From the IMG/VR virus record IMGVR_UViG_3300008111_002316: a stretch of DNA of 35,431 nt; one strand, 5' to 3'. Origin of the DNA: an uncultured virus (IMG/VR IMGVR_UViG_3300008111_002316) (Duplodnaviria > Heunggongvirae > Uroviricota > Caudoviricetes). The notes beneath the pieces are model-generated. The model was given only the letters and a program-made list of their open reading frames with translations, was not told the DNA's origin and did no database searches. This document shows positions 5,033 to 32,237 of the stretch, one piece after another. Every line of letters begins with the position of its first letter. Within the stretch, counting starts at the first letter, position 1. The position numbers were made by a program, and so were the translations under genes.

Positions 5033-5249
5033 AGCCTATTCCAAAAGTGCTAGTTTAAGAGGTATCACACCTGCAAAAAAGGTCAAAATATCAAGTCCAA
5101 TTATGCCAGTTTATTAATTGTCACATCTATCACAAAAAAGTCAAAATGTCAAGTAAAATTATGCCAGTTTAGAAAGTGTCACATATAGTATAGAAAGTTC
5201 TAAAAAAGGTGACATAATAGTAATATAAAGAAAAACACAGGAGTTCCAA

Positions 5250-18054: not shown

Positions 18055-18909
18055 CTAATATTTCAAAAGGGAACCTTTAGTCACCTCAAGAATCTCTTGA
18101 ATGGTAGTGACTCGCCCTAAAGAAAGACCTAAAGGTTGAGAAGGAGTGATAGCGTGCTGGTCGGGGGACTTACGAATAGTGAAGTCAATATCGACACCTG
18201 AGAACCAAGCAACAGAAGCTGGTAAATCATAAAGTCCAACAGAATAAGAGATATAAGCCCTAGTCCAAAGGTGAGCTATTTGCAAAGCTAAACAAAAACG
18301 AGCAGAATCTTTAGCAAGAACAATGTACCGGTATTCATCATGAATAGTGATACAAAGTCGAGCATCAATGTCGTATTTGGAACAAAGATAATCAACAGCA
18401 GTAAGACAGATGTGTAAAAAATCAACACCGGAGCTTTGAACACAAAAATTAATTTTGCTAGTTAGATAATCTTTGTGACCAGTAAAACGGGGATGAATGG
18501 CATCACTCATAGTACGTTTTAAGGTAGGAGTGCGAGGGTCACTAGAAGTAGCAATACGTTCAAGTTCGTTAAACATAACGGACTCAGTACCTAAACGCCA
18601 ACGTCCTTCAATTTTTTTACCTTTTGTTTTGGCAAACATATCAGAAGCAAGCTGTTTAGCCTCAGCAGAAGTCAAAGTTTTACGGAACTCCCGCATATAA
18701 TTAATCATCGATTTAAGACCAGCAGAATATCGACGGCTATAGACGACAGTTTTAGCATTATCACGACTGATACCTAATAAAGAAGCAGTCATAGAATGAG
18801 GGTCAGTGCCATCTTCTTTACAGCCAACAAGTGTTTGAAAAGAGGAAGGCGTACCACCAATAATGCCAACATGAGCATCAGCTATAAGGTCAGAAATCCA
18901 TAACTCTTG
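18055..18909 (-). CDS. DNA polymerase gamma-like (family A), exon 2
   Basis: Starts QELWI, completing motif A GADVDS|QELW; motif B RDNAKTVVYSRRYSAG; TSKINFCVQSSGVDFLH; motif C ITIHDEYRY. Confidence 0.93.
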   Translation of the reverse strand, partial: QELWISDLIADAHVGIIGGTPSSFQTLVGCKEDGTDPHSMTASLLGISRDNAKTVVYSRRYSAGLKSMINYMREFRKTLTSAEAKQLASDMFAKTKGKKIEGRWRLGTESVMFNELERIATSSDPRTPTLKRTMSDAIHPRFTGHKDYLTSKINFCVQSSGVDFLHICLTAVDYLCSKYDIDARLCITIHDEYRYIVLAKDSARFCLALQIAHLWTRAYISYSVGLYDLPASVAWFSGVDIDFTIRKSPDQHAITPSQPLGLSLGRVTTIQEILEVTKGSLLKY

Positions 18910-19740
18910 CAAGTTTCTTACGAATAGCCCGCTTCCGACTATTCTCACTGAGTCTCCCCAGTGTTGAGACTATATCATATACGGTTTCCCGTATCTCCCC
19001 GTTTCGAGCTTGCTTAAGCCCTACGATAATAAGCCTAGTTCTTTCAAGATACCCTTATATGCTTTACCCTTCTTGATGTTAGCCACATGGGACTTCTGTA
19101 CTCCATGCTCTTTAGCTAATTGTTCATCTGGTAAGTCAGAATTGAAGATTTTTACAATATCTTCTGTGGTTAACTTGAATCTAGACGTTTCTCTAGTCGT
19201 TGAAGAGTCCTGTACAATCCTTCCCACTGTGGTTCTGTTCATGCCCACCATCTCCGCTATTTTTCGGGTGGTGTAACCCTGTACCCATAGTTCCATTACT
19301 TCTTCCCGGTGAATATCTCTGAAGTCCGAGTGTTGGTTTTTTCTACCTTGGGGGCGTTTGTCGCCCTTTAGCCGATAGTCTTCAGAGATATTGTGGGAAA
19401 TTGTACACCATTCAAGATTTTCAAGATTGTTATTGGTCTTGCAATCGTCTTTGTGGTGGACTACGGGGAGATTGTCTGGGTTGGGTAGATGGGCTAGGGC
19501 TACCATACGGTGAACCATGATGTTTTTAGTTTCCCCTGAGTCATTTGTTAGGACAGTTGCCATATATCCACTTTTATTGACTGCTGGTGACATAAAACGC
19601 TTGACTCGGTGGGAGTAGATACGACCCGTTTTAGTAACGCTGTACTTACTAAATCCGGGGATTGTAACTAGGCTTTCCCGCTGATTGTCCATAACCTTTT
19701 TTCCAGCAATTAGAGGAGTTTAACGACAGCCATTGTGTTA
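18910..19740 (-). ncRNA. Group I intron (831 nt) in polymerase motif A
   Basis: Exon GACAGU pairs with IGS GCUGUC giving the U.G splice pair; P AAUUGCUGGAAA, Q AAUCAGCGG, R UUCAACGACUAG, S AUGAUAUAGUC, P8 AUACGG-GAAA-CCGUAU-like, terminal G at 18910; splicing restores the frame. Confidence 0.9.
19021..19692 (-). CDS. Intron-encoded NUMOD4/HNH homing endonuclease (I-HmuI-like)
   Basis: IPGFSKYSVTKTGRIYS; VHRMVALAHLPNPDNLPVVHHKDDCKTNNNLENLEWCT; C-terminal HTH-like segments. Confidence 0.9.
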   Translation of the reverse strand: MDNQRESLVTIPGFSKYSVTKTGRIYSHRVKRFMSPAVNKSGYMATVLTNDSGETKNIMVHRMVALAHLPNPDNLPVVHHKDDCKTNNNLENLEWCTISHNISEDYRLKGDKRPQGRKNQHSDFRDIHREEVMELWVQGYTTRKIAEMVGMNRTTVGRIVQDSSTTRETSRFKLTTEDIVKIFNSDLPDEQLAKEHGVQKSHVANIKKGKAYKGILKELGLLS

Positions 19741-21564
19741 ACTGTCCACGTCAGCACCAATTTGAACATAGCCTTGTGGCATACGAACAGTGGTTTTAAT
19801 TTCACTTCCAATGCGATTAGCCCGGGGGTTAGCCGCAGTAAGCCAAGTGTTTTCAACAGCACGACCAGTGACAGTACCGGCAGTAATTAATTGAGGACAA
19901 ATAAAACCAGTTCGATTGTCAGAAGACAGAACAACAAATTGATTTTTTACTCGGTCTTGAACAGAAACCCAATAAGCGCAAGAAATAGCAGATTGGAGGG
20001 CTAATTTAGCTTCAGGGAAGTCAGAATCAAGAATACCTCCTTCCATTTCAGACAGATAATCTTTAGACAAAGGCGAACCAACATTGGAATTTTCACCGGC
20101 TTTGTGAGGTAGGGGATAATACAGAGTATCGACATAAGAAAGACCACCATCGTGAGAGATAAAGTTTTCAAGAAGCAAAGGTGTGGTATTGGAAGAAACA
20201 TCAGCACCCTGAGTGGCAAGAAAACCCCACTTACGATCCTTATGATGATAAAGAGGGAAACCCATCCAAGAGAGACGTAAAAGATAGGGGGTACATTGGG
20301 AACGAACAGTAAGGTTCAGTTTATCACCCTTGAATAGCTTACGATACCATTCTGGTTTGTCTTTATGTTTTTTAGCCCGTGAAGAAGGCATAGACCAATC
20401 TAAATGACGAAGCCAAGCATCAGAGTTAGGGTCTAATTCACCGCTAATAAACTTAGAAACTGCATCATCAGCCAACATTTGCAAGTGGGAATTAATTTTT
20501 AAGCGTTCGGACTGAAACAACTCTTCACACCGATTGATATAGCCATACCAACTTTCACGGGTAACAGGAAGGATAGCAGTACCCATTTGCAACATTCCGC
20601 AAAAAGTCACAGCAGAAGGGCATTTTTCCTTAAAGCGGAACCATAAAACTTGATAAAGTTGAAAAGTGACTTTAACATCATTAGCACAGTATTGAGCTAA
20701 TTGCTGAAAACGATTTTTTATTTCCAAAAGAGTACCGGTAACAAAATAATCACGGTCGGATTTGGAAATAGAATAACCTAAATGCAATCTTGAAGTTTCG
20801 GCTAAAGAATTACCGCTAGAAACCTCAAGCCAATCAAAATAAAAAGGAGACTCACCTTGCTCATCAAGAGCTTTATTATGTTTGATGCTAAGAGGACGTT
20901 GTTTTGAACTTAGACCAGCGACGCATTGGTGCATAGACAAAGTATCCCAAAAACGAACGCCTGAGAGTTTGAGGTCATAAGTTTCTAAGGTTCTTGCACG
21001 GTCATAACTGGCATAATGAGCAACAACAAATTTGTCGGATTTACCCAAAGGACAAAGAGTATCAGAACCGTTTGAAACCAGTTTAGGGGAAACCCAAAAA
21101 TACCAAGCGACAGAAGAAACAGCACAAGCCATGACAGGGTAATTAGAGCTAGTAACAGCAACCTCACAGTCATAAACAATGGACATCTCAAGAGGGTAAG
21201 GGACAGAATAGGGTTCCGACCCATCCATAGGGTAACAAGTCCAACCGCACTTGAAAATAAATTCAGAAGGAATAGGTGGAATACTGGTACGAGCTAAAGC
21301 CTCCGCTAAATCTAAATAAGGTTTAGAACGCTGAATAGCAATGTTGTGAAAATGTTTTTCAAGGTCTTCACCTTCAAGAGGGGGTAAATCAAATTCAATA
21401 GTAGGAGGAGTAGGAATGTTCGAGCCACTCAGATTGAAGCTCTGTAACTGTCTTTTGGCTTCGTCACGAGCAGTTTTGCTTGGGTGGTTTTCTAAATCCC
21501 CAAATAATTGCTCCCTTAAGGATTCAGAAATCAAAGGAATCCCTACAGCATTTTTTCTAGACAT
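19741..21564 (-). CDS. DNA polymerase gamma-like (family A), exon 1; spliced product about 892 aa
   Basis: ExoI VYDCEV, ExoII AHYASYDRAR, FWDTLSMH, ExoIII QYCANDV, LPHKAG..NVGSPLSKDY, GTVTGRAVENTWLTA...IGSEIK, GADVDS; all match mitochondrial Pol gamma signatures. Confidence 0.93.
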
Positions 21565-21739
21565 ACACGGTTTTATTTTAAGTGGTTTACATTTTAAGTA
21601 TCGTACAAAGTTAATCTTTTGTCAAGGTTGAAATATTGACAGGGGATGGAATAATCACACAGCAAGGATTGAGCGGGGAGGGGAAAAACAAAAAAACATT
21701 GACAATGGTTGTAGTCGATGTTAAAAACCTAATAATCAT

Positions 21740-22493
21740 ACTTGGTGCTAACTTAGAATTTCTCTGGTTAGAGAATCGCTTTTGTCGATGCGCTCTCAGG
21801 GGAAAAGGAAACTTACGGTTAATTCGTCTCCCTCGTCTTCCTCGTCGCATTAAACGACTACTATCCATCCGTTTTTCAACTCGTTTAAAGGGAAGCTCTA
21901 GGTGAGCCGTCTACAGAGTAAAACCAGAAGATGGGACATTAATTCCAGAAAACAATTTGCTGGGGTCAATTCCTACAGAAATAGGTTGAGTTTTATTTTC
22001 TTGATCATCTTGCTTTGTAGAATCAGGTGTAAGAGGAAATTGAGGATTAAATCGATGAACAAATCACTGTTATCCTAAAACAAAATCCCCTTGACACCGT
22101 GTTTGTAACTCATTGTTAATGAGATCAATCTGTTTGCTTCCCACTGCGATTTTGACCACTCCTCAATGTTTTAGCAGGTCTAGAACGTCCAACATCACTA
22201 TGAATAGAATCTTGTAAAGCATCAATTAATATCTCCGGTGGTAAAGGCCTACGAAGCTCACTTTCCTCCTCAGACAAGGGTGTTAATTGCGGTCTTTGGG
22301 GTGGATTACCACGCCCAAGATTCTCTATTACTTTATCATTGTCAGAAGGTTCTGCTATCAGTTGGACATAGAATTGTCCTAAGTCGTTGAATTTACCGAT
22401 GGCTTTTCCTTCTTTAATCCACCGTCTAGCCCGACTAGGTTTAGTCGGCATTAGAGGTCGATTGTCTGAAGAGATTACAGGTATTCTTTGCAT
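21740..22493 (-). pseudogene. iscB: IscB (RRXRR family) pseudogene, interrupted and truncated
   Basis: PLMP domain at 22338-22493; ~340-bp insertion; then 21740-22000 ENKTQPISVGIDPS (RuvC-I), in-frame TAG at 21911-21913, bridge helix MRRGRRGRRINRK..RQKRFSN..KLAPS; HNH and RuvC-II/III absent. Confidence 0.88.
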
Positions 22494-22737
22494 GGAGATA
22501 ATCCTTAAGAGTGAAGTTAATGTCCTTTACCGCAACACAATCAAGATGTCTTGTCTAACAACGCTTTACCAATAAAGCTTAGAGATAGTCCGAACGAGGG
22601 AAGGATTCGTAAGTCTGGGACAGATTGTGTCTCAATGCGGTAGTCGCTACTTGCGTTGCTTAAATTGGTCTAGGCAAGCCCCGCACCTTTAGGACGGGGT
22701 TAGTAACATAATGAGCAACAACAAATTTGTTGGATTT
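22494..22737 (-). ncRNA. IscB omegaRNA scaffold (~214 nt) with 5' guide
   Basis: Begins GTTACTAACCCCGTCCTAAAGGTGCGGGGCTT (typical end hairpin) and runs to the iscB ATG; the 5' flank 22707-22737 matches 21012-21042. Confidence 0.8.
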
Positions 22738-22813
22738 TATTGAGGAAAAAGGTTAAGAAGCAACGACAGCACTACAATTAATAGTAATGGTTTGAGCGAC
22801 AGGGTGAAGTCGT

Positions 22814-23311
22814 TTAGACACTGCCAGTGAAGTGTTTTCTAGTTCGAGCGTGTAAATAATTTTCTGGACGGTTAGTGACTTTAGCCATTTCTACATTAGC
22901 TTTAAAATCTTTAACTTTCTTAATATAGGAATCAATAGTTTGTCGTTGATGCACGTCACCCAGACCTTTAAATTTTGGTCTATTAAGATACCAAGTTTGA
23001 TATTCGATTAGGACATCAATTAAGGGTGAAAAGACAATGCAATAAGGTTGAATAGAGGTCAAAATGTCGATAGCTAATTGACCTTTGATAATCCATTTTT
23101 TGTTACGATTGGGAGGTTTTGCGATATAAACAGTTCCCCCTAACATTTGACTAACTAGATGCAAATAATTAATATTTTTGTGATGAAATTCGATGGCAGG
23201 GGTAACAAAGTTTTTATGACGCATTAAGCTAATAGAGGCTTTGGCTTCAATCATACCAGCGACATAAGCAGTTTCGAGGGGAGATAGCGTGTGAATCAGA
23301 CTGTTGGACAT
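22814..23311 (-). CDS. Free-standing LAGLIDADG-like homing endonuclease, degenerate motif
   Basis: TAYVAGMIEAKASISL helix, LGGTVY, KWII.G.A...L..I.PY. Confidence 0.6.
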   Translation of the reverse strand: MSNSLIHTLSPLETAYVAGMIEAKASISLMRHKNFVTPAIEFHHKNINYLHLVSQMLGGTVYIAKPPNRNKKWIIKGQLAIDILTSIQPYCIVFSPLIDVLIEYQTWYLNRPKFKGLGDVHQRQTIDSYIKKVKDFKANVEMAKVTNRPENYLHARTRKHFTGSV

Positions 23312-23369
23312 AATAAATTTTGGTACAAATTGGTAGAGGGACTATGTGAAAGAATTAGAAATACCGAAA

Positions 23370-23999
23370 TCATTCAGCTAAAGCATTAATTATGGAGCCA
23401 TAATTATCCTCAATGAAAGACAGCAAATTTAAATCATTATCTAGGGTATCGTCATCCACGTCATTTGGTGAATTTTTATCCCATTCCCAAGCGTAAAGGA
23501 TAGCATTGTGAAGAATAAATTTGGAAAGCAGAGGTAAACGAGAAAGACGAAAAGCTTGAATATAATCAAAGTATTGCTGTTCACGAATAAGCATAAAACT
23601 TAAAAACCAAGCATGATAATTATGGCTTAGGTATTCGAGACAAGATTCAGGAGAATCGAAAAGATGTTCAAAAGGGTATTTTTTTCCTTGTTCTTCAGGG
23701 GGCAAAAATTCATACCAATCTTGAATGGACTCTAGAGGGTAACATTTGTTACGCCAAACAAAATACTCGTCTATTAAAGAAGGAAAAAGGTCTTTAACAG
23801 CTTCAAGAGTGTAAAGGTTTAGAGTCATTTTGTACTTTAAAGGAACTTTAGAAACCTGTAAGGTTTTCAAATAGGTAGAAAATTGTCTATTAGAGATAAG
23901 CGTAACTAAAGAACTAACGGTTTCAGCTTCTGTATGGTTCATAGGGGAGGACTCCAAATTGATTAGTTTAATCATAGCACGGTTGACGGAAATGGTCAA
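23370..23999 (-). CDS. Hypothetical protein
   Basis: ~200-aa ORF; start uncertain. Confidence 0.65.
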   Translation of the reverse strand: MTISVNRAMIKLINLESSPMNHTEAETVSSLVTLISNRQFSTYLKTLQVSKVPLKYKMTLNLYTLEAVKDLFPSLIDEYFVWRNKCYPLESIQDWYEFLPPEEQGKKYPFEHLFDSPESCLEYLSHNYHAWFLSFMLIREQQYFDYIQAFRLSRLPLLSKFILHNAILYAWEWDKNSPNDVDDDTLDNDLNLLSFIEDNYGSIINALAE

Positions 24000-24000
24000 G

Positions 24001-24030
24001 AAAAACCCACCTATATTACGGGTGGGTTTT
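24001..24030. terminator. Terminator after the helicase
   Basis: AAAACCCACC...GGTGGGTTTT. Confidence 0.75.
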
Positions 24031-24035
24031 AAAAA

Positions 24036-25643
24036 TTATTCTTTGATGAAAACTTTTTGTTTAGCTCGTGTGAGAGCTACATAAAGCAATTTTTTCCAAT
24101 TAGGGGCGTTATATACATCAAGACCATCGATAAAGACAACATCAAAACCAGACCCTTGACTTTTATAGACAGTCAAAGCATAATTATATGCCCAATGATA
24201 CGTCAAAAAGCTTAAGTTTTGCCATTCTTTATAGGCAGAATATAGAGCTTTACAATTGGATTGTAGCTTAGAACTGACAGAATAAAGAGCGTCAGGGTAG
24301 GCTCGTTCAAGATAAGTTAAAGCTTCTTGAGCAATTGCCAAAATAGAGGGGTCTGGAACTATAGGAATTACGCCAGAGATTAAACCATCGATACAATAAA
24401 GAATGGCTGTTAAATCCTTCAATTCTTCTTGCAAAGTTATAGAACGATTCATGACCTGAATCATTTTATCGTTATTGCGAGGGTCAATAAAAGAAACCGT
24501 CCATTGTAAATCTCTGTCTAAAGATTTAACAGTAGTATCCCAAACATCAACAGTAAAGTTGGACATTTTGTGAAAATTAAGAGTAAATTCCACTAACTCT
24601 TCAGCGTCAAAAATGTCGATTTCTTTCTCTTTAAAGGGGTCACAAAGTTTGCAAGTTGAAAAATGGGAACTAAGGATGGACACGATTTCACCATTAACAA
24701 AATTGGCAACTTTATTAGCACGGTTAACATATTTAAAGTAGTTATTACGGCGTAAACTGATAAGTTGTTCGCCTTCAGCAAAGGGTTTATTAGCGATACC
24801 TTTTATTGAACGAATAAGTTCGTTATATTGACAAACTTTATCGTTTTTATGAGCTAATATTTTGAACTCAATATTTTCTGAAGCTACAGTATTTTTTAGC
24901 TTTTCATACCATTCATTAGCAGAAATAAGTTCAACATTGTGCAAATCAGGGTCTAAAACCAATTGTTTATCAATAATAGACTTTAACGTTGGCTTTTGGG
25001 AGTCATGGACATTAATGAGTTTCCGAAGATGTTCAGCAATTTTAAGAACACCAGCATCATAACGCATGACTTGTTCTAAAATAGAACTACTACCACAATT
25101 AAAAACATTACTAGCTTTTTGACCGGGTGGGGGTAGTTGACAAGAATCACCAACCCAAAGAATTTTAGCTTTGATTTGGGACGCTTTTTCCCTTAAACGA
25201 CACTCCATATCCTTAGAAAGAATAGAAACTTCATCAACGATAATCAACTGGTATTGGCTAGTGACAAATTTAGAGTTACCGGTATCTAAAGTAGATTTTT
25301 CAGAGTCTCTGGTAACTCGGACACCTTTCATTTTGTACTGCCCACCTTTTTCTTGAATTACAAGTCCTAAAATGGCATGAATAGTATAAACATCTGCGTT
25401 AAATGTCAACTTTTCTTTAAGGACAGAAGCCGCTTTATTGGTAGGACATAAAATAGCAATTTTTAGGTTAGGGTGTGACTGTATCCAATGAGCAATTAAA
25501 GTGGTTTTACCAGTACCAGCCCCCCCAGAAATTAAATGTTCCCCCTTTTTTGAACCCCACCAACGTTCTAAATCTTCGAGAGCTAACCTTTGGTCTTCTG
25601 TTAATTGAAGGGGTGTGGTTTCGATAGCTACAGACGATGACAT
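24036..25643 (-). CDS. SF1B Dda/RecD-like DNA helicase
   Basis: GGAGTGKTT, PTNKAA, TIH, IIVDEVS, VGDSCQLPP, YALTVYKSQGS, LLYVALTRAK. Confidence 0.92.
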   Translation of the reverse strand: MSSSVAIETTPLQLTEDQRLALEDLERWWGSKKGEHLISGGAGTGKTTLIAHWIQSHPNLKIAILCPTNKAASVLKEKLTFNADVYTIHAILGLVIQEKGGQYKMKGVRVTRDSEKSTLDTGNSKFVTSQYQLIIVDEVSILSKDMECRLREKASQIKAKILWVGDSCQLPPPGQKASNVFNCGSSSILEQVMRYDAGVLKIAEHLRKLINVHDSQKPTLKSIIDKQLVLDPDLHNVELISANEWYEKLKNTVASENIEFKILAHKNDKVCQYNELIRSIKGIANKPFAEGEQLISLRRNNYFKYVNRANKVANFVNGEIVSILSSHFSTCKLCDPFKEKEIDIFDAEELVEFTLNFHKMSNFTVDVWDTTVKSLDRDLQWTVSFIDPRNNDKMIQVMNRSITLQEELKDLTAILYCIDGLISGVIPIVPDPSILAIAQEALTYLERAYPDALYSVSSKLQSNCKALYSAYKEWQNLSFLTYHWAYNYALTVYKSQGSGFDVVFIDGLDVYNAPNWKKLLYVALTRAKQKVFIKE

Positions 25644-25693
25644 AGCGACAAACTCCTTGTTGAATGTTAAAAAGCGAATTTTGATTGAAACTC

Positions 25694-25830
25694 GGTTGTG
25701 GTTTCGATATTGACATACTCACCGTCCTTAAAGAGTGGTGATTCTTGACGCTTCACCGACTGACGCTACCGAGGTAGTCTTACTCTGTCTCTGCGCCCGT
25801 TTAGAGTCTCCCAATGCCCTATGGCGACTT
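25694..25830 (-). ncRNA. Orphan IS200/IS605 TnpB omegaRNA/right end with 3' guide
   Basis: GGGCATTGGGAGACTCTAAACG...GTAAGACT...GGTGAAGCGTCAAGAATCACCACTCTTTAAGGACGGTGAGTATGTCAA has the QESP...GE.V tail, subterminal hairpin and TCAA end of IS605-group elements; no tnpB ORF. Confidence 0.75.
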
Positions 25831-25841
25831 TCTTGTTTGGA

Positions 25842-26327
25842 TTATACCCAATCTTTTTCGTTCCATATTTGTTTGTCAATAAAATCTGAGATAGACTTTA
25901 CTATTTCGTCTGTTTTGTCAAGAATAAAATCAATCTCATCTTGCTTGTCGGAAATTTCAGATTCATCCCAAACAAGTGCCTCATCATAGCTTAATCCTAT
26001 ATATCTATATATTTCTTTTATTTCTCCGGTTCTTAGATCAAATATTCTACTACTTACTTTAACTACTGGTAAATCATCAAAATCTCGGTAATAGCACATA
26101 ACCTTAATATGCGCTATGGTCTGACTATCTAAAAGAACCTTAGCATTACCCATTAGGTAAATTGTAGTCGCTGATGTTATTTTCCATTCTGACCAAAGAA
26201 GATATTTGAATAACCAATTATCCCAAAAAGACCATGTATTATACTCTTTGTAGCAAAAAGCCGCAATCTTTTTGAGTATATCTATTCTTCGTGGCTTATT
26301 AAAAAACTTTTCTGTTGTTGTGTTCAT
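25842..26327 (-). CDS. Hypothetical protein, divergent member of tandem family
   Basis: KI..FC...Y..W N-terminal motif and I.DFI..QI C-terminus. Confidence 0.7.
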   Translation of the reverse strand: MNTTTEKFFNKPRRIDILKKIAAFCYKEYNTWSFWDNWLFKYLLWSEWKITSATTIYLMGNAKVLLDSQTIAHIKVMCYYRDFDDLPVVKVSSRIFDLRTGEIKEIYRYIGLSYDEALVWDESEISDKQDEIDFILDKTDEIVKSISDFIDKQIWNEKDWV

Positions 26328-26749
26328 AGCGTCACCTCGGTTTGTATTTCAGTTTCGATAAATGAAAGGATATTAATCAAGATTTGTGTTCCTTTTTCAC
26401 ACCATAAGTTTAGTTCTTTATGTTTAGCAGTCCCACTTTTCTTGAACAAGATTTTACTGTTTTTTCTATCATTTATCCATATAAGAAAACTTCCTTCCCA
26501 ATCTAGATTAGAGATAGTAGACCGACCTTCTATATAATTTCTAAAATCACTAGGTGAACCGTTACTACTATAAGAGTTGTTGCTATTGACCCTTATATCT
26601 ATTTGTATTCCATTTATAGAATTAAGAATAGAGCGATACCCGTAAATGATGTTTTCAGTTCTACTTAAAGACGTAAATGACCACTTTAGCTCTGGGTAAG
26701 TTTTTTGGCAGAAATTAAATATTTTTTGGGTTGTTTCTGTAGTGTTCAT
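26324..26749 (-). CDS. Hypothetical protein, tandem paralog
   Basis: QKIFNFCQKTYPELKW...FIETEIQTEVTL; ATGA overlap. Confidence 0.75.
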   Translation of the reverse strand: MNTTETTQKIFNFCQKTYPELKWSFTSLSRTENIIYGYRSILNSINGIQIDIRVNSNNSYSSNGSPSDFRNYIEGRSTISNLDWEGSFLIWINDRKNSKILFKKSGTAKHKELNLWCEKGTQILINILSFIETEIQTEVTL

Positions 26750-27126
26750 AATGTCATCTCGGTTTGTATTTGAGTTTCGATAAACTCAAAAATACTTGAC
26801 AGCATATCTTTGGGTTTTATAAATAAATCTGTTGACGTATCAAAATCTTTTTTTGATTTAAAAGAGAATTGAGATTCTTTTCTATCTAGCCAAATTTTGA
26901 AAGAACCAGACCATCGCTCTGAACTAGAGATAAACGTGCTTACTTCTCCTAACACAACAGAACTTCTTAATAAAGTACCAATAGTCTCTATACTGACATC
27001 AATCTCTGTTATTTTACCCCAAATATGAAAAGTTGAATTTGTGTAATTTGTTTGTTCCCAATTTATTTCTGGGTAACGGTCTTTACAGAAATCTAATATT
27101 TTTTGGGATGTTTGCCATGTGTCCAT
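26746..27126 (-). CDS. Hypothetical protein, tandem paralog
   Basis: QKILDFCKDRYPEINW...FIETQIQTEMTL; AGGAG RBS. Confidence 0.75.
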   Translation of the reverse strand: MDTWQTSQKILDFCKDRYPEINWEQTNYTNSTFHIWGKITEIDVSIETIGTLLRSSVVLGEVSTFISSSERWSGSFKIWLDRKESQFSFKSKKDFDTSTDLFIKPKDMLSSIFEFIETQIQTEMTL

Positions 27127-27184
27127 TTGTTACTCCTATTTACTCTTGGATTTCACCAGACCAGATTGGTTCGTAAATTAATTA

Positions 27185-27274
27185 TATATTGGTTTGAGTA
27201 AAATGTCAAGAGGCATAATATCTTGGTACATAGTTTTAGGGCTGAGGGGGATAGTTAAAGGCGAAATATTAGTG
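27185..27274. repeat. 90-bp direct repeat, copy 1 (contains a - strand TTGACA)
   Basis: Near-identical to 32148-32237. Confidence 0.85.
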
Positions 27275-27554
27275 AAACTCAGTTTAGGAAACGAATGAAC
27301 GCAGATAGAATTACACTAAGACAGACTACAGACACAGCAATTCCAGAATCAAAATTTTCAGGGGTTGAGAAAAATCTTTTAGACTTTAACCCTAGTATAA
27401 AACTACCGTAAATGTTAATGAATGTTAACAAATGCGGGTCTAAGTCAATTAGGTAGTGTCATTCCAGTCAAAAGCATTTTCCACTACATTTAAATCCTTA
27501 TCGTACTCACGATTAAAGGCGTAATCGTCGTAGGGATGCCACTGAGCCAGTTCT

Positions 27555-27746
27555 TTAAGGCTTTCGTCTAAAACTATCGATTGTATCTAGAAAAGAGCAT
27601 GAGTATTTTTTCCAAAATCCAAAGTTTTGATCTCTCATAAAACTTAATGCTTGTTTAAAATCTTTTTCTTTAGTTTCATGCTTCGAGATAAATTCATTGT
27701 TCCAAAAAAACTGAATTGTCATGATTTCTCCTGTTGTTTTGTCCAT
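27555..27746 (-). CDS. Hypothetical small protein
   Basis: AGGAG RBS suggests the start is the second Met (MTIQFF). Confidence 0.5.
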   Translation of the reverse strand: MDKTTGEIMTIQFFWNNEFISKHETKEKDFKQALSFMRDQNFGFWKKYSCSFLDTIDSFRRKP

Positions 27747-28321
27747 ACTTTAATCTAATCACCTCGCCCTATATCGTGGTTAATTAAATGTGACATTATC
27801 TCAACTGTCACACCTCCTGAAAATAGATACGATAACCCTCAGTCTGTTTGCTTACCCCGTAATCCATCCACCGCCCCAGCAATCGGCTGAAACTGAAGCA
27901 CCCCGAACCGTGTCACCGGCGCATTAGGGACGTGCCTATCAACGCACTCCACCAACTTATACTTAAATAGAGCCAGTCTTTACAAAAGAAAAAACGGGCA
28001 AATAATAATGGCTTTTCGGATGACACCAATCTAACCCAAAAAGGCGATCGATATGCTGACCTCTATCGGCTACAAGGGAATAAGTTCATCAGAGAAGGCG
28101 AGAAAAAAGGAGCCTACTATCCAGTGATTAACCCAAACAGTAGCGACAATGCTCCCATCTGCTTTATCGGCTATTACGATTAATCCCCCAACCCTGAATA
28201 GTTTTGTCTTTCTAACCTGGTTATCTCTTTAAGTAGCTCGTTTCTTTCCTCAATAAGTTTTTGGTTTTCGCTTAAAGCCTATCTATTTCAGCTTTTAACT
28301 TTTCCTTTTCTTTAAAATTAT

Positions 28322-28519
28322 TCATTGTATGTAACCTCCATTAATTTTTACACTTGGATTTGATTCTTGGTAACTGCCATTACTTTTGATAAAAGGTAAA
28401 GCAAGTTTATAAACATTATCAATTTTAATATAGCTTTCAATAATTTGAAGCGTTATGTCCACAATAGGAATTTGCCCAATTTCTATTGTTGCCTTATCAA
28501 ATAAGCGCCGTGAAGCCAT
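28322..28519 (-). CDS. Small hypothetical protein of the virion module (start revised to MASRR)
   Basis: ATG 4 nt after the stop of the preceding gene. Confidence 0.55.
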   Translation of the reverse strand: MASRRLFDKATIEIGQIPIVDITLQIIESYIKIDNVYKLALPFIKSNGSYQESNPSVKINGGYIQ

Positions 28520-28523
28520 ACGA

Positions 28524-29327
28524 TTACTGCCCGAAAAAAAGAGAACCTGAAAGAGTTTGAGTAGATGTCGATGGAAATAAAAAACCAGACAAACAAGCGA
28601 CTGGGAAGATTTTGCAAAGGCTTCCAATAAATCCCCCCGTACTTACAGAATCAACTGGCTGGTTAGACACAGACATCATAGCCAAAGGCTTGAATAGGAT
28701 CACCCCAAAATTACCAGCCGTGCCAGTGCTGGCTGATAAAGTTACTGACTTTACAGCACGCACACCAGTATCCCCAGCGGCAAGAGGTATCAAATGTGTT
28801 CTACCTGAGTTTCGTTCACTGGTGGAACTAGAAGGAGGAAAAGAATACAAAGAGCTAATTTTCTCCGATACCCCATCTTGATTGGTATAATTAATTGAGG
28901 CAGTAACAATTGTGCCTCCTATAGCTGTCCAAATAATTAAGCCAGCAAATACCCCTTGACCATTTGTATATCTTGTTAAAGGTGCTGTTGGCAAGTTGAT
29001 AGTTTGTTCTGTGGTGACAATCCCACTTAGCCCGCCAGAGATATTAAGCAAATCTGCCACGATCAAAGTGCCTGCTCCATTATAATCAAATTGGCCTCCC
29101 AGCAGGAGGGTATCACTTGTGCTCAATGAATTTAATTGATTATTTATTGCATACGGACTGGTATTGTCCAAGTTAATACTTAAAGATGGAATAGAAGGCA
29201 CAGTAGGAAAAAATCTGGAGATCAACGACGCTTTAGCAATAGATGCCGACGATACATAACTTTGAAAATTTTCTGCATTTTGCAAAGATATTTGGCTAAG
29301 ATAATCTTGATAATTATTAATAGGCAT
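28524..29327 (-). CDS. Putative virion/tail-associated protein, paralog of 29330..30169 (start revised to MPINN)
   Basis: LTRYTNGQG, YTNQDGVS, GDTGVRAVKSVTLSASTGTAGNFG. Confidence 0.7.
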   Translation of the reverse strand: MPINNYQDYLSQISLQNAENFQSYVSSASIAKASLISRFFPTVPSIPSLSINLDNTSPYAINNQLNSLSTSDTLLLGGQFDYNGAGTLIVADLLNISGGLSGIVTTEQTINLPTAPLTRYTNGQGVFAGLIIWTAIGGTIVTASINYTNQDGVSEKISSLYSFPPSSSTSERNSGRTHLIPLAAGDTGVRAVKSVTLSASTGTAGNFGVILFKPLAMMSVSNQPVDSVSTGGFIGSLCKIFPVACLSGFLFPSTSTQTLSGSLFFGQ

Positions 29328-29329
29328 TT

Positions 29330-30169
29330 TTACTTCTCCACAAAAGCTAAACATCCAAAAATATCGGGAGCAGTTGTCCCTCCTGCCCGGAAAATATACG
29401 AGAGACAGGCATTCGGGTGGATCGAAGGAATACCAGGTAATCCTGTTGTGTAATCTCGCCAACCCATTATCCCTGCCAAAACTACAGACTGCCAAGATAT
29501 TGGAAGAACAAGGGTAATTCCAAAATTACCAGCCGTGCCAGTGCTAGCTGATAAAGCAATTTTTTCAATTACTCTGATTCCCTTATCTCCGAGAGCCAAA
29601 GGTATTCTTTGCATTCTCGTCGCTTCTCTAAATCCAGTTCCTCCTATGTTTATAGTCGAAACTCTTCCTGGTACACCCTCTTGATTTGTGTAAGTCATTG
29701 TCAAAGTGGTACTGGTTGTTCCGATCTGACTGTATATTTCGTAAAAAGCAATATTTCCAATGCCCTCCGTATTTCGGGTAAGAGCGGTAGAACCTTGTAT
29801 CGACTGATCCGTAGTTATTGCAGCATTTAATCCTCCAATCTGAAATAAGCGATCATAAACTACGTAGGTTCCAGCGACAGTAGAAGTGATCCCAGCACTA
29901 ATTAACAATTTTTCCTGCGAGGCTACAGGAGCAGTAAAAGGCATTGCTCCTATCGTCGAACGGCTTGGAATTTCGGCAATTGTAGGAACAGCCCCACCAC
30001 TCGGAATTCCCTCGTATTGCCATAAAGACTGATCCCTCCCAGTGATTGGTGATGTGGCACTGGCTACCCCGATTCGAGGAACTTTATGGAAAAAGAGGTT
30101 ATCTGGATTTCCGTTGTTACCTCCAGATTGCCTGTTAATTAAATCAGATAATCCACTTAAAGCGGCCAT
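29330..30169 (-). CDS. Putative virion/tail-associated protein
   Basis: LTRNTEGIG, YTNQEGVP, GDKGIRVIEKIALSASTGTAGNFG; G/S/T-rich. Confidence 0.7.
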   Translation of the reverse strand: MAALSGLSDLINRQSGGNNGNPDNLFFHKVPRIGVASATSPITGRDQSLWQYEGIPSGGAVPTIAEIPSRSTIGAMPFTAPVASQEKLLISAGITSTVAGTYVVYDRLFQIGGLNAAITTDQSIQGSTALTRNTEGIGNIAFYEIYSQIGTTSTTLTMTYTNQEGVPGRVSTINIGGTGFREATRMQRIPLALGDKGIRVIEKIALSASTGTAGNFGITLVLPISWQSVVLAGIMGWRDYTTGLPGIPSIHPNACLSYIFRAGGTTAPDIFGCLAFVEK

Positions 30170-30372
30170 AAGTTTCTTTCGGTTATGAATTGGTTAACTT
30201 CAACTAAAAAAGTTGATAAATTCAAAAAATTAACTGGACTAGCTACGATTAGCCTCGAATCTGGTAAAAATTGAGGCAAAATTTCAACACCTTCATTTAT
30301 ATACCATTTGCAATGCCAGTCGCCTGCTTCAGATTCAAAAGTGTAAGATTCAACAGTTTCTATGACTCTCAT
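30157..30372 (-). CDS. Small hypothetical protein
   Basis: 71 aa, tightly packed in the operon. Confidence 0.6.
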   Translation of the reverse strand: MRVIETVESYTFESEAGDWHCKWYINEGVEILPQFLPDSRLIVASPVNFLNLSTFLVEVNQFITERNLWPL

Positions 30373-30389
30373 GATTTTTCGGGATTAAG

Positions 30390-30578
30390 TTAACTAGAAA
30401 TGCGAAAATAAATACTACCTTCTGGGTTTCCGTCGCTATTATTAGGAGCCTCAGTTCCGTAGGTAATAATTGTAATGGTTGGTTTCTCCGAAATATTAGC
30501 CCAAGTTAAATAACTTGATACCCATCGGGTTGTGACAACGCTATCTAAAGTGTTAATTGGGCCAAGATACTCTTTCAT
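30390..30578 (-). CDS. Small tail-fibre-associated-like protein
   Basis: TWANISEKP and ITYGTEAP...G..GSIYF resemble fibre-protein motifs. Confidence 0.55.
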   Translation of the reverse strand: MKEYLGPINTLDSVVTTRWVSSYLTWANISEKPTITIITYGTEAPNNSDGNPEGSIYFRISS

Positions 30579-30586
30579 TATACTTA

Positions 30587-31396
30587 CTAAGCTAACAATT
30601 TGGCTACAAAACCATTGACAGGGGGAACTGCTGTAGAGGCAAAAGTTAGGCGAATCGAAGTGTTACTTAATCTTTCTGTGAATACGCCCACAGTATCTCT
30701 ATTGCCGCTATTGCGGATCACTTCTACACTAGGATTAATATCAGTCAGTGTGTGGGTAATTACAAAAATCGTATTAGTGCCGTCTCCAAAAGGATTGGTA
30801 GTTACAGATCGCCGTCTGCCTGACCAACTGGCAAGGATAGAAGGAGTGACATATTTAGCCGTATCTGTCCCAGATTCTAATTCGGCTAAAGTAGCACGCT
30901 GTACCTTGCCTGCTGTGGTTTCACTTGCATCCGGTACTCCCGACCCGTGAACTTGCCAGATAATCGCAGAAGTACCAATAGTCACAGATTGCGTGATTTG
31001 TCGATAAGTTACCCCGTCATCGTTATTCCCACTACCAGACGCAACAGTGACGATTGCATTTCTTAGCTCGGACCCCGTACTAGCGTCAGCAGTGCGAGTA
31101 GCCGGAACAGAAGCTCCGTTCCAATTGTAAAGTCCATTTTCTGTGTTATCGCTTTGATTTGCGGCAATAAAGCGAGAATTAGCCAGGGTCATAGTTACCC
31201 CACCAATGATCGACCCGGGAGCATTTAAATTGATATTTGATGGGGCAGATGCAAAGACAGCATCTTTATAATCAAATCCTTCTAAGAGGGCATTTACAGT
31301 GCCAAAATTAACTAGATCATTAGGGTTTTCCGGAGCAACAGAAGCCTGGATTTTTCCCTTAAACTCAACATCAGACCAATATTCAATAATCTGCAT
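30587..31396 (-). CDS. Tail fibre/decoration-like structural protein
   Basis: NQSDNTENGLY, TRTADA, DASETTAGKVQRAT..E..GTD..KYVTP (fibre repeat), GDGTNT.FVITH.L. Confidence 0.7.
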   Translation of the reverse strand: MQIIEYWSDVEFKGKIQASVAPENPNDLVNFGTVNALLEGFDYKDAVFASAPSNINLNAPGSIIGGVTMTLANSRFIAANQSDNTENGLYNWNGASVPATRTADASTGSELRNAIVTVASGSGNNDDGVTYRQITQSVTIGTSAIIWQVHGSGVPDASETTAGKVQRATLAELESGTDTAKYVTPSILASWSGRRRSVTTNPFGDGTNTIFVITHTLTDINPSVEVIRNSGNRDTVGVFTERLSNTSIRLTFASTAVPPVNGFVAKLLA

Positions 31397-31398
31397 AA

Positions 31399-31716
31399 TT
31401 ACCTCGATAAGATTGCGTAGCCACTAAAAGGACTACTAAAAACAATTTGAGTAGTGGTTAAAGAAAGATTTTGTGTAAAAGCCTCTATTTTTACTCCTCC
31501 CGAACTAAAAACTTGAGTTTGTGGCTCAAAGTTTAAATTATGCACAATTATCCACGTTGCAGACGGAGTGTTTTGAGTGTGCTTATAAAAAACGCTACCA
31601 TCTCCGGGTGGTCCGGGTGGGCCAGGTGGGCCTTGTATATAATTGTCCGGGTCTCTAGCCAGAACAAAAATCGCTGATTCTTCCTCTTGCAGGACTACTA
31701 TCGTCGGCTGATTCAC
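31399..31716 (-). CDS. Virion-associated protein with short collagen-like repeat
   Basis: QGPPGPPGPPGDG; HTQ..PSATW.I.HNL. Confidence 0.7.
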   Translation of the reverse strand: MNQPTIVVLQEEESAIFVLARDPDNYIQGPPGPPGPPGDGSVFYKHTQNTPSATWIIVHNLNFEPQTQVFSSGGVKIEAFTQNLSLTTTQIVFSSPFSGYAILSR

Positions 31717-32132
31717 ATTAAAACCTCCGTTACTCGATCGCTCACCTCCACCAATCCCTCAAAAAGCGTAAAAATTCGCTCAAAATTTGTAGGATGCCGT
31801 ATCTTAATATCGTACTCCCACAGATGTCGTCCGACCACAATCGCTTGACCAGCACTCGGTGACTTAGTTGGTGGCAAAGCTAAAGCAACCGAAGCTCGAA
31901 GGAATGGTACAATTCTCGTGCATTCCGTCTCCACCTCGTTAATCGGAATGATGATCGGAATCATCGGCTCAAAATCAAAAGCTCCGTAAAGATCACCCCC
32001 TGCCTTTTTGCGAACCTCCCCAAAAATTAGCCAGCTAGTAAAATCGCCCTCGATCGCAAAAGTGCGCCGCCGCCATTCACTGCCACGCTCTATCTTCAAA
32101 TCACCAATTAAATCAAATCTAACCGGTCTCAT
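31713..32132 (-). CDS. Putative baseplate/tail-associated protein
   Basis: L.IERG N-terminus; YDI....TLFEG.VEV..RVT C-terminus; GGAGG RBS. Confidence 0.6.
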   Translation of the reverse strand: MRPVRFDLIGDLKIERGSEWRRRTFAIEGDFTSWLIFGEVRKKAGGDLYGAFDFEPMIPIIIPINEVETECTRIVPFLRASVALALPPTKSPSAGQAIVVGRHLWEYDIKIRHPTNFERIFTLFEGLVEVSDRVTEVLM

Positions 32133-32147
32133 GTCTTCCCTCCTTTC

Positions 32148-32237
32148 TATATTGGTTTGAGCGAAATGTCAAGAGGCTTAATATCTTGGTACATATATTT
32201 AGGTCTGAAAGGAATAGTTAAGGGCGAAATATTAGTG
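32148..32237. repeat. 90-bp direct repeat, copy 2
   Basis: Near-identical to 27185-27274. Confidence 0.85.

Follow-up and report, generated by a model that had tools for sequence, protein, structure and literature searches.

A probable relic of an IsrB-type OMEGA element beside a cyanophage polymerase gene carries a guide that copies part of that gene

Why would an omegaRNA in a phage genome carry, as its guide, a piece of that phage's own DNA polymerase gene? The question is raised by a stretch of 35,431 nucleotides (nt) from an uncultured caudoviricete (IMG/VR record IMGVR_UViG_3300008111_002316), the whole of which we call the window, and in which an earlier note made from the sequence alone had described an orphan IscB omegaRNA with a guide matching the adjacent polymerase gene. 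The surrounding region shares 94-96% identity with Microcystis phage Mic1 (MN013189), a siphophage whose polymerase gamma-like gene is split. The element, a cassette of guide, omegaRNA scaffold and nuclease gene debris, lies directly upstream of the N-terminal polymerase gamma-like gene (pol; 608 amino acids, 19738-21564, minus strand, DNApol_Exo domain with E 4.8e-80). From sequence comparisons, we consider it best explained as the decaying relic of an IsrB-type OMEGA element whose guide would record an insertion into the pol gene of a sibling phage, and which could have discriminated between pol alleles while its nickase lived; we put the probability of this reading at about 0.5.

The match between guide and pol is confined and precise. 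A direct repeat links 21012-21042 with 22707-22737 at 30 of 31 identical positions, and the 24 nt adjoining the scaffold are perfect, as originally described. Allowing up to three mismatches, this scaffold-side 24-mer occurs at only these two sites in the window, and two matches to it were found in none of 100 dinucleotide-preserving shuffles. A chance similarity of flank and pol, in whose favor there is only the AT-rich composition (36% G+C), is hardly credible in view of the shuffles and of the fact that the match ends exactly at the transposon boundary. That boundary falls at 22707/22708, because the scaffold begins with GTCACTAACC in every copy and the sequence upstream of it is different in each, so the 30 nt upstream (22708-22737, minus strand), directly 5' of the scaffold, are the guide. 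The 31-nt flank proposed earlier was correctly placed at the boundary but one base too long, since 22707 is the first scaffold base (the G of GTYAC). The guide copies pol codons 175-184, and the protospacer-like target from which these codons are read (21013-21042, minus strand) encodes KSDKFVVAHY within the DNApol_Exo domain, in agreement with the first description. The 24 nt of the target nearest the position of the target-adjacent motif (TAM) equal the guide, the sole mismatch (A for G) lying 25 nt away from the scaffold. The target is on the coding strand and is followed there by GCCAGT, again as first reported; the TAM position in the carrier's own pol (21009-21012, minus strand) thus reads GCCA, with GCC as codon 185 (Ala).

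The TAM of the host family and a comparison of guide, target and TAM across relatives, both proposed in the earlier note as checks, separate this allele from that of a sibling. At one Microcystis locus, an element is present in one genome and its flanks abut in 12 of the 14 other genomes fetched; in the seven empty-site genomes inspected, the left flank joins directly to ATGA. The same four bases stand just outside the conserved far end of all six full-length copies. These sites point to ATGA as the family TAM, consistent with the published IsrB TAM, NTGA (the published guide length is 20 nt). The protospacer is shared among the relatives, and what follows it differs: GCCA in the window, in its nearest record (IMG/VR contig G001) and in Mic1, and ATGA in L026, an IMG/VR contig that lacks the cassette. 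Codon 185 is accordingly ATG (Met) in L026 and GCC (Ala) in the window. All three bases differ in only 3 of the 608 codons between the window and L026 pol, codon 185 among them, and at least two bases differ in 8; ATGA has a frequency of 0.004 per base on the pol coding strand. Guide and TAM would therefore be predicted to make a canonical target only in the sibling's allele and not in the carrier's pol. Under the TAM rule, this is the configuration of free-standing homing, a sensitive target in an element-less relative and a resistant one in the carrier, and it lends real, if indirect, support to the earlier suggestion of an element directed against the pol alleles of related phages. The carrier's own pol also has an ATGA, 7 nt downstream of its match to the guide, and we considered this as the original insertion site; an extra deletion would have to be assumed, and the L026 allele took its place.

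The omegaRNA scaffold (22496-22707, minus strand) belongs to a cyanobacterial IsrB insertion-sequence family and is full length, as had been proposed. Against a covariance model built from nine copies of other genomes, with the window left out, it scored 220.3 bits (E 1.9e-66) over model positions 1-213 of 213, compared with 247-263 bits for intact members, and the model found no second scaffold copy in the window. A consensus from ten full scaffolds holds 52 base pairs, 12 of them with compensatory changes. The Rfam HEARO model (RF02033), which had been suggested as a check, gave a full-length match in the right place and orientation (22516-22707, minus strand) but far below its gathering score (23.1 bits against 83; E 0.027), and no Rfam family reached its gathering score anywhere in the window. 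The scaffold lies directly upstream of the nuclease open reading frame (ORF) on the same strand, ending at the ATG at 22493. A 21-base stretch of it occurs at 16 genome loci (14 in Microcystis, 2 in Crocosphaera) and in four viral contigs, scaffold and gene together match phage Ma-LMM01 and its relatives at about 80%, and of 401 cyanobacterial genomes sampled for a DNA search, 25 had matches. Scaffolds of intact elements in Microcystis are 89-92% identical to that of the window. The element thus appears to be a Microcystis host insertion sequence, drawn from the host's pool of such sequences.

Copies of the start of the omegaRNA also stand alone in these phages. Mic1 has an exact 15-nt copy just after the stop codon of its upstream gene (Mic1_87, at about 5095-5110 of the locus), and the window (about 22795-22812) and L026 have a degenerate version of it in the same place. 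Similar solo copies lie upstream of elements in Ma-LMM01 and in the IMG/VR contig L006; they may be scars of older insertions. In three IMG/VR contigs (L005, L006 and L007), an IsrB element is preceded by the first ~190 nt of a second isrB, so that in these nested or tandem elements the guide is isrB sequence itself; L006 has three scaffold copies.

Intact relatives of the nuclease gene (in L022 and in the gp171 region of Ma-LMM01) encode a 365-amino-acid protein with RRXRR as its only Pfam domain and without HNH. The best solved match of an intact relative is the IsrB structure 8DMB (E 1.7e-42, residues 2-361), and IscB chains align with residues 1-117 only. Since the relatives lack HNH and match 8DMB best, the element is not IscB proper; homology places its nuclease among the IsrB nickases, and the former IscB label has to be given up.

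In the window, the gene is dead, as the earlier note had recognized, by an insertion, a stop and a truncation. Codons 1-52, the RRXRR N-terminus (22339-22493, minus strand), run in frame into a foreign insert of 341 nt that splits isrB (21998-22338, minus strand). About codons 53-135 follow (21744-21997, minus strand; about residues 48-138 on another count) with one in-frame stop, and the remainder of the gene after about codon 135 is gone, RuvC and TAM-interacting parts included. The conserved far transposon end of the six full-length copies is missing too, homology stopping at 21744. The first 52 IsrB residues, which we take to be the PLMP region (Pfam label RRXRR), are fused to a foreign peptide in a 122-amino-acid ORF (22125-22493). 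The insert is a fragment of an uncharacterized cyanobacterial gene, with 55% amino acid identity over 60 residues to a homologue in one cyanobacterial genome (G179); the homologue has no Pfam family, and the insert has no match in the phage collection.

A homologue of the insert was also seen in L026 (515-793), at another genome position and right after an omegaRNA stub (49 nt in L026; 46-49 nt over all the cases). Insert homologue and stub occur together likewise in contigs from RNA libraries, which suggests a recurrent stub-plus-gene module.

The isrB fragments retain a trace of their functional past. Their private changes number 17 of 112, 11 of 122 and 25 of 82 sites at codon positions 1, 2 and 3, and compared with host copies they show 43 synonymous and 27 non-synonymous codon differences. 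This pattern suggests that the gene diverged under selection and died fairly recently, its functional phase possibly lying entirely before entry into the phage. The scaffold does change more slowly than the pseudogene, a contrast that had been named as a way to tell a maintained RNA from a neutral relic (private changes at 9 of 159 sites, against 53 of 316 in the isrB fragments), but we rejected it as a sign of selection on the RNA: the isrB changes are third-position-biased and mostly synonymous, and because they largely predate the death of the gene, the contrast is no evidence of later selection.

The cassette sits at a site specific to one phage lineage, represented by three near-identical records (the window, G001 and the metagenome contig L049). 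G001 has the same arrangement as the window at 99% identity; over 21381-24149, neither it nor L049 differs from the window apart from a 9-nt indel near 21731. Window positions 21737-22757 have no counterpart in Mic1 and L026, which carry about 25-31 nt at this point. When the 9-nt indel is restored, the native spacer after the cassette begins with ATGA and aligns to the Mic1 spacer. Because homology to Mic1 and G001 makes ATGA the start of the native flank, the cassette, read on the plus strand, follows immediately upon a native TCAT (21736-21739; ATGA on the element strand), so that the spacer abuts the truncated cassette end with the family's target-site sequence in the expected position. 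Compared with Mic1 and G001, no native spacer has been lost at the cassette; the junction includes 4-7 nt of unclear origin. A stretch of the Mic1 spacer that resembles the element's far end was considered as a deletion scar and rejected, as it aligns similarly to the native spacer of the window and L026.

How, then, did a piece of pol come to stand before a scaffold in the spacer? The guide must have originated as a transposon flank, and since the Met-185 allele is an exact canonical insertion site, an earlier insertion there is its simplest source. To this extent the neutral alternative put forward earlier, an old insertion in pol later rescued by recombination, fits the data and is needed to account for the guide, but the same data fit allele targeting too. 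We propose that the first insertion was a canonical one, into a Met-185 pol between the Tyr-184 codon and ATGA, by which pol sequence would have become the guide. The element would later have moved, along with 30 nt of pol flank, to the TCAT in the spacer. The move that we favor is a single transposition in which the transposase read through past a mutated end (GTCAC to GTTAC; the window scaffold starts with GTTAC and all other copies with GTCAC), which agrees with a cassette bounded by TCAT at one end and by 30 nt of pol at the other; alternatively, recombination or break repair could have copied the cassette from a genome with the insertion sequence still in pol (pol::IS). With a working IsrB, the ribonucleoprotein would, under the published rules for such nickases, nick the coding strand of Met-185 pol in co-infecting siblings and spare the Ala-185 carrier, and the element would then be a free-standing, RNA-guided nicking homing or exclusion element. 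Today it would be a relic, any remaining activity depending on host IsrB supplied in trans.

Several observations weigh against this history. The TAM is drawn from a single empty-site locus, another that was compared being occupied in six of six genomes. Ala-185 is the majority allele, found in 9 of the 11 motif-bearing members listed of the protein cluster, with Met in 2 of 11 (15 members were listed and 40 read, of 116 in the cluster). It may also be the older state, since outgroups have Ala (at 50% identity) and Cys (at 65% identity); the pol alleles are mosaic. With Ala-185 common and possibly older, the carrier's TAM-less allele needs no selection. No intermediate, whether pol::IS or an intact isrB with this guide, turned up in one metagenome scan and the viral scans, which also place the cassette in one lineage only: the degenerate guide-plus-scaffold pattern used for the search hit one metagenome locus and one viral locus, both of the same lineage, and the pol-site pattern matched only two viral contigs. 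In the scaffold, 4 of the 52 consensus pairs are broken, compared with at most 2 in any other copy, and the nine private substitutions, one of them at the third base, fall at positions where the other copies agree. The insert homologue that adjoins an omegaRNA stub in L026 is a hint that the element may have been broken already on arrival. As for expression, contigs from four RNA libraries with at least 90% similarity cover the scaffold and none bridges 22694-22770, though contigs cannot show absence, and the minus strand upstream of the guide yielded no promoter-like site.

Much of this would be expected if the cassette had been dead on reaching the spacer, brought there by illegitimate recombination or by break repair with a pol::IS genome as template, and had never acted on pol. 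We regard such a neutral relic as possible, if on balance doubtful. It agrees with the prevalence of Ala-185 and its presence in an outgroup, with three lesions in the nuclease gene and some decay of the scaffold, with the L026 module as a suggestion that a broken composite was already circulating, and with mosaic pol alleles that indicate common recombination in the region. It accounts less well for a cassette placed exactly at a native TCAT with no loss of spacer, which transposition fits better than random capture, and it is also opposed by the signature of purifying selection in the isrB fragments, though this may date from before the phage. The opposite possibility, that the element still works without its own nuclease, has a read-through omegaRNA direct host IsrB to nick the Met-185 pol of siblings, excluding or converting them and perhaps copying the cassette. 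In its favor are intact 365-amino-acid IsrB genes in Microcystis whose scaffolds are close to that of the window, a full-length scaffold of 220 bits, 24 perfect nt next to the TAM position where the published guide has 20, and a natural sensitive allele in L026. Nuclease-less omegaRNA elements that need nucleases in trans are discussed by Meers et al. We nevertheless think present activity unlikely, given the broken pairs, the change at an otherwise invariant 5' scaffold position, the missing promoter-like site and the RNA-library contigs, none of which bridges the guide; with near-identical records only, conservation cannot be judged. The stronger form of the proposal, in which omegaRNA and host IsrB nick the Met-185 pol of rivals while a three-base change in the TAM codon guards the carrier, as RNA-guided intronless homing or exclusion, likewise strikes us as improbable.

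The RNA-library contigs derive partly from Mic1-like phages that lack the cassette and partly from host copies whose guides are different, and in the sequencing runs at most 0.23 of the sampled words for 21000-23300 were present. No minus-strand terminator is predicted between the upstream gene (22814-23311, minus strand, function unknown), which has the same orientation as the omegaRNA and ends 76 nt before the guide, and the guide itself. Transcription into the omegaRNA could plausibly come only from that gene, and read-through from an upstream gene is, according to Meers et al., the usual way in which such omegaRNAs are made. A regulator or decoy, an RNA that tunes pol expression by binding the pol template strand, alone or together with an inactive protein, or that soaks up host IsrB, was among the options raised at the outset and found no support here. 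The 122-amino-acid ORF does keep the first 52 IsrB residues, and domesticated TnpB relatives (TldR) are reported to act as RNA-guided transcription factors. Set against this, the guide has the sense of the pol mRNA, which leaves no antisense action, the element's own target is without the TAM needed for DNA binding, and no RuvC or TAM-interacting part of the protein is left; we consider such a role very unlikely.

The relic that we favor shares with known IsrB-type OMEGA systems (ISC1 and IS200-IS605 relatives; DtIsrB, 8DMB) a scaffold upstream of the nuclease gene, a guide outside the transposon end, an NTGA-like TAM (ATGA), and relatives of about 365 amino acids with RRXRR and without HNH. 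It differs in its dead nuclease and its lost far end, in a scaffold shorter than that of DtIsrB (about 213 against 262 nt), and in a guide that copies a nearby essential gene instead of an ordinary flank. Its likeness to IscB and HEARO is limited to the position and orientation of the weak RF02033 match and to the first 117 residues, which align to IscB structures; the score below gathering and the HNH-less relatives set it apart.

The arrangement also resembles that of free-standing homing endonucleases of phages such as T4 SegF, where the element lies beside the conserved replication gene that holds its target (PMC13565253). In both, self and non-self would be told apart by a few substitutions at the recognition site, and a sensitive allele is found in an element-less sibling. 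In the window, recognition would be by an RNA guide and TAM, not by a protein, and the nuclease is dead. Nicking HNH enzymes of phage pol introns are comparable homing enzymes. In the restorative and non-restorative transposon homing by TnpB and IscB described by Meers et al., guide and TAM likewise define the target, and transposase and nuclease share the TAM. As in that model, the element's own empty site (guide flank plus the ATGA at 21736-21739) would be a target. There, self is told from non-self by whether one and the same site holds the transposon, whereas in the window the distinction would lie at another locus 0.7 kb away, in the TAM codon. PATE-like nuclease-less elements share an omegaRNA without a working nuclease that would need supply in trans; the window element, by contrast, keeps nuclease gene debris, has lost one transposon end and is probably no longer mobile.

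The passages of the review PMC13565253 that we consulted list OMEGA nucleases only under homing by transposon presence or absence, and name protein endonucleases alone for homing that depends on substitutions in a neighboring gene; our literature search, which did not extend to supplements, found no paper describing a case like the present one. With a natural guide and TAM, one codon would here suffice to tell apart two circulating forms of an essential phage gene. If the ribonucleoprotein works or once worked, an RNA-guided element would have taken the role of a free-standing phage homing endonuclease, and this would be a tangible example of sibling cyanophages in competition. The cassette, though only a relic, would still preserve the history of an IsrB element that entered the polymerase gene of a phage and took a guide from it to a new site.

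The neighborhood of the cassette is itself variable. The spacer and the first ~80 nt of pol (21540-21660), together with the upstream gene (22758-23498), diverge from Mic1 and L026 far more than the body of pol does, at about 17 differences per 60 nt and 88-91% identity compared with about 96%. This raised divergence places the cassette in a mosaic segment, and the divergence profile around it is mosaic but not diagnostic of co-conversion. G001 lacks 137 nt inside pol (window 21234-21370), a length that is not a multiple of three, and has 63 additional nt near 19700; the gap could be a real deletion or an assembly fault.

On the other side of pol, between it and the second polymerase ORF (18055-18948, minus strand; the DNA_pol_A part), there is an ORF for a 223-amino-acid HNH_3/NUMOD4/HTH endonuclease (19021-19692, minus strand). 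L026 has ~138 nt in place of window positions 19025-19699, and Mic1 likewise has only a short gap there. With the HNH ORF on one side and the IsrB relic on the other, the pol exonuclease gene is flanked on both sides by selfish elements in the window lineage. Before the second polymerase ORF there is a weak match to the group I intron model RF00028 (18946-19041, minus strand; 19 bits against a gathering score of 50, E 0.031), and the Mic1 genome paper reports a 298-bp intron between the two pol ORFs of Mic1; taken together, these suggest that the HNH ORF may be intron-borne.

Farther away, L026 has no counterpart of window positions 25693-32231, about 6.5 kb; in their place, over the stretch compared (L026 53-869), it has ~355 nt with the omegaRNA stub module.

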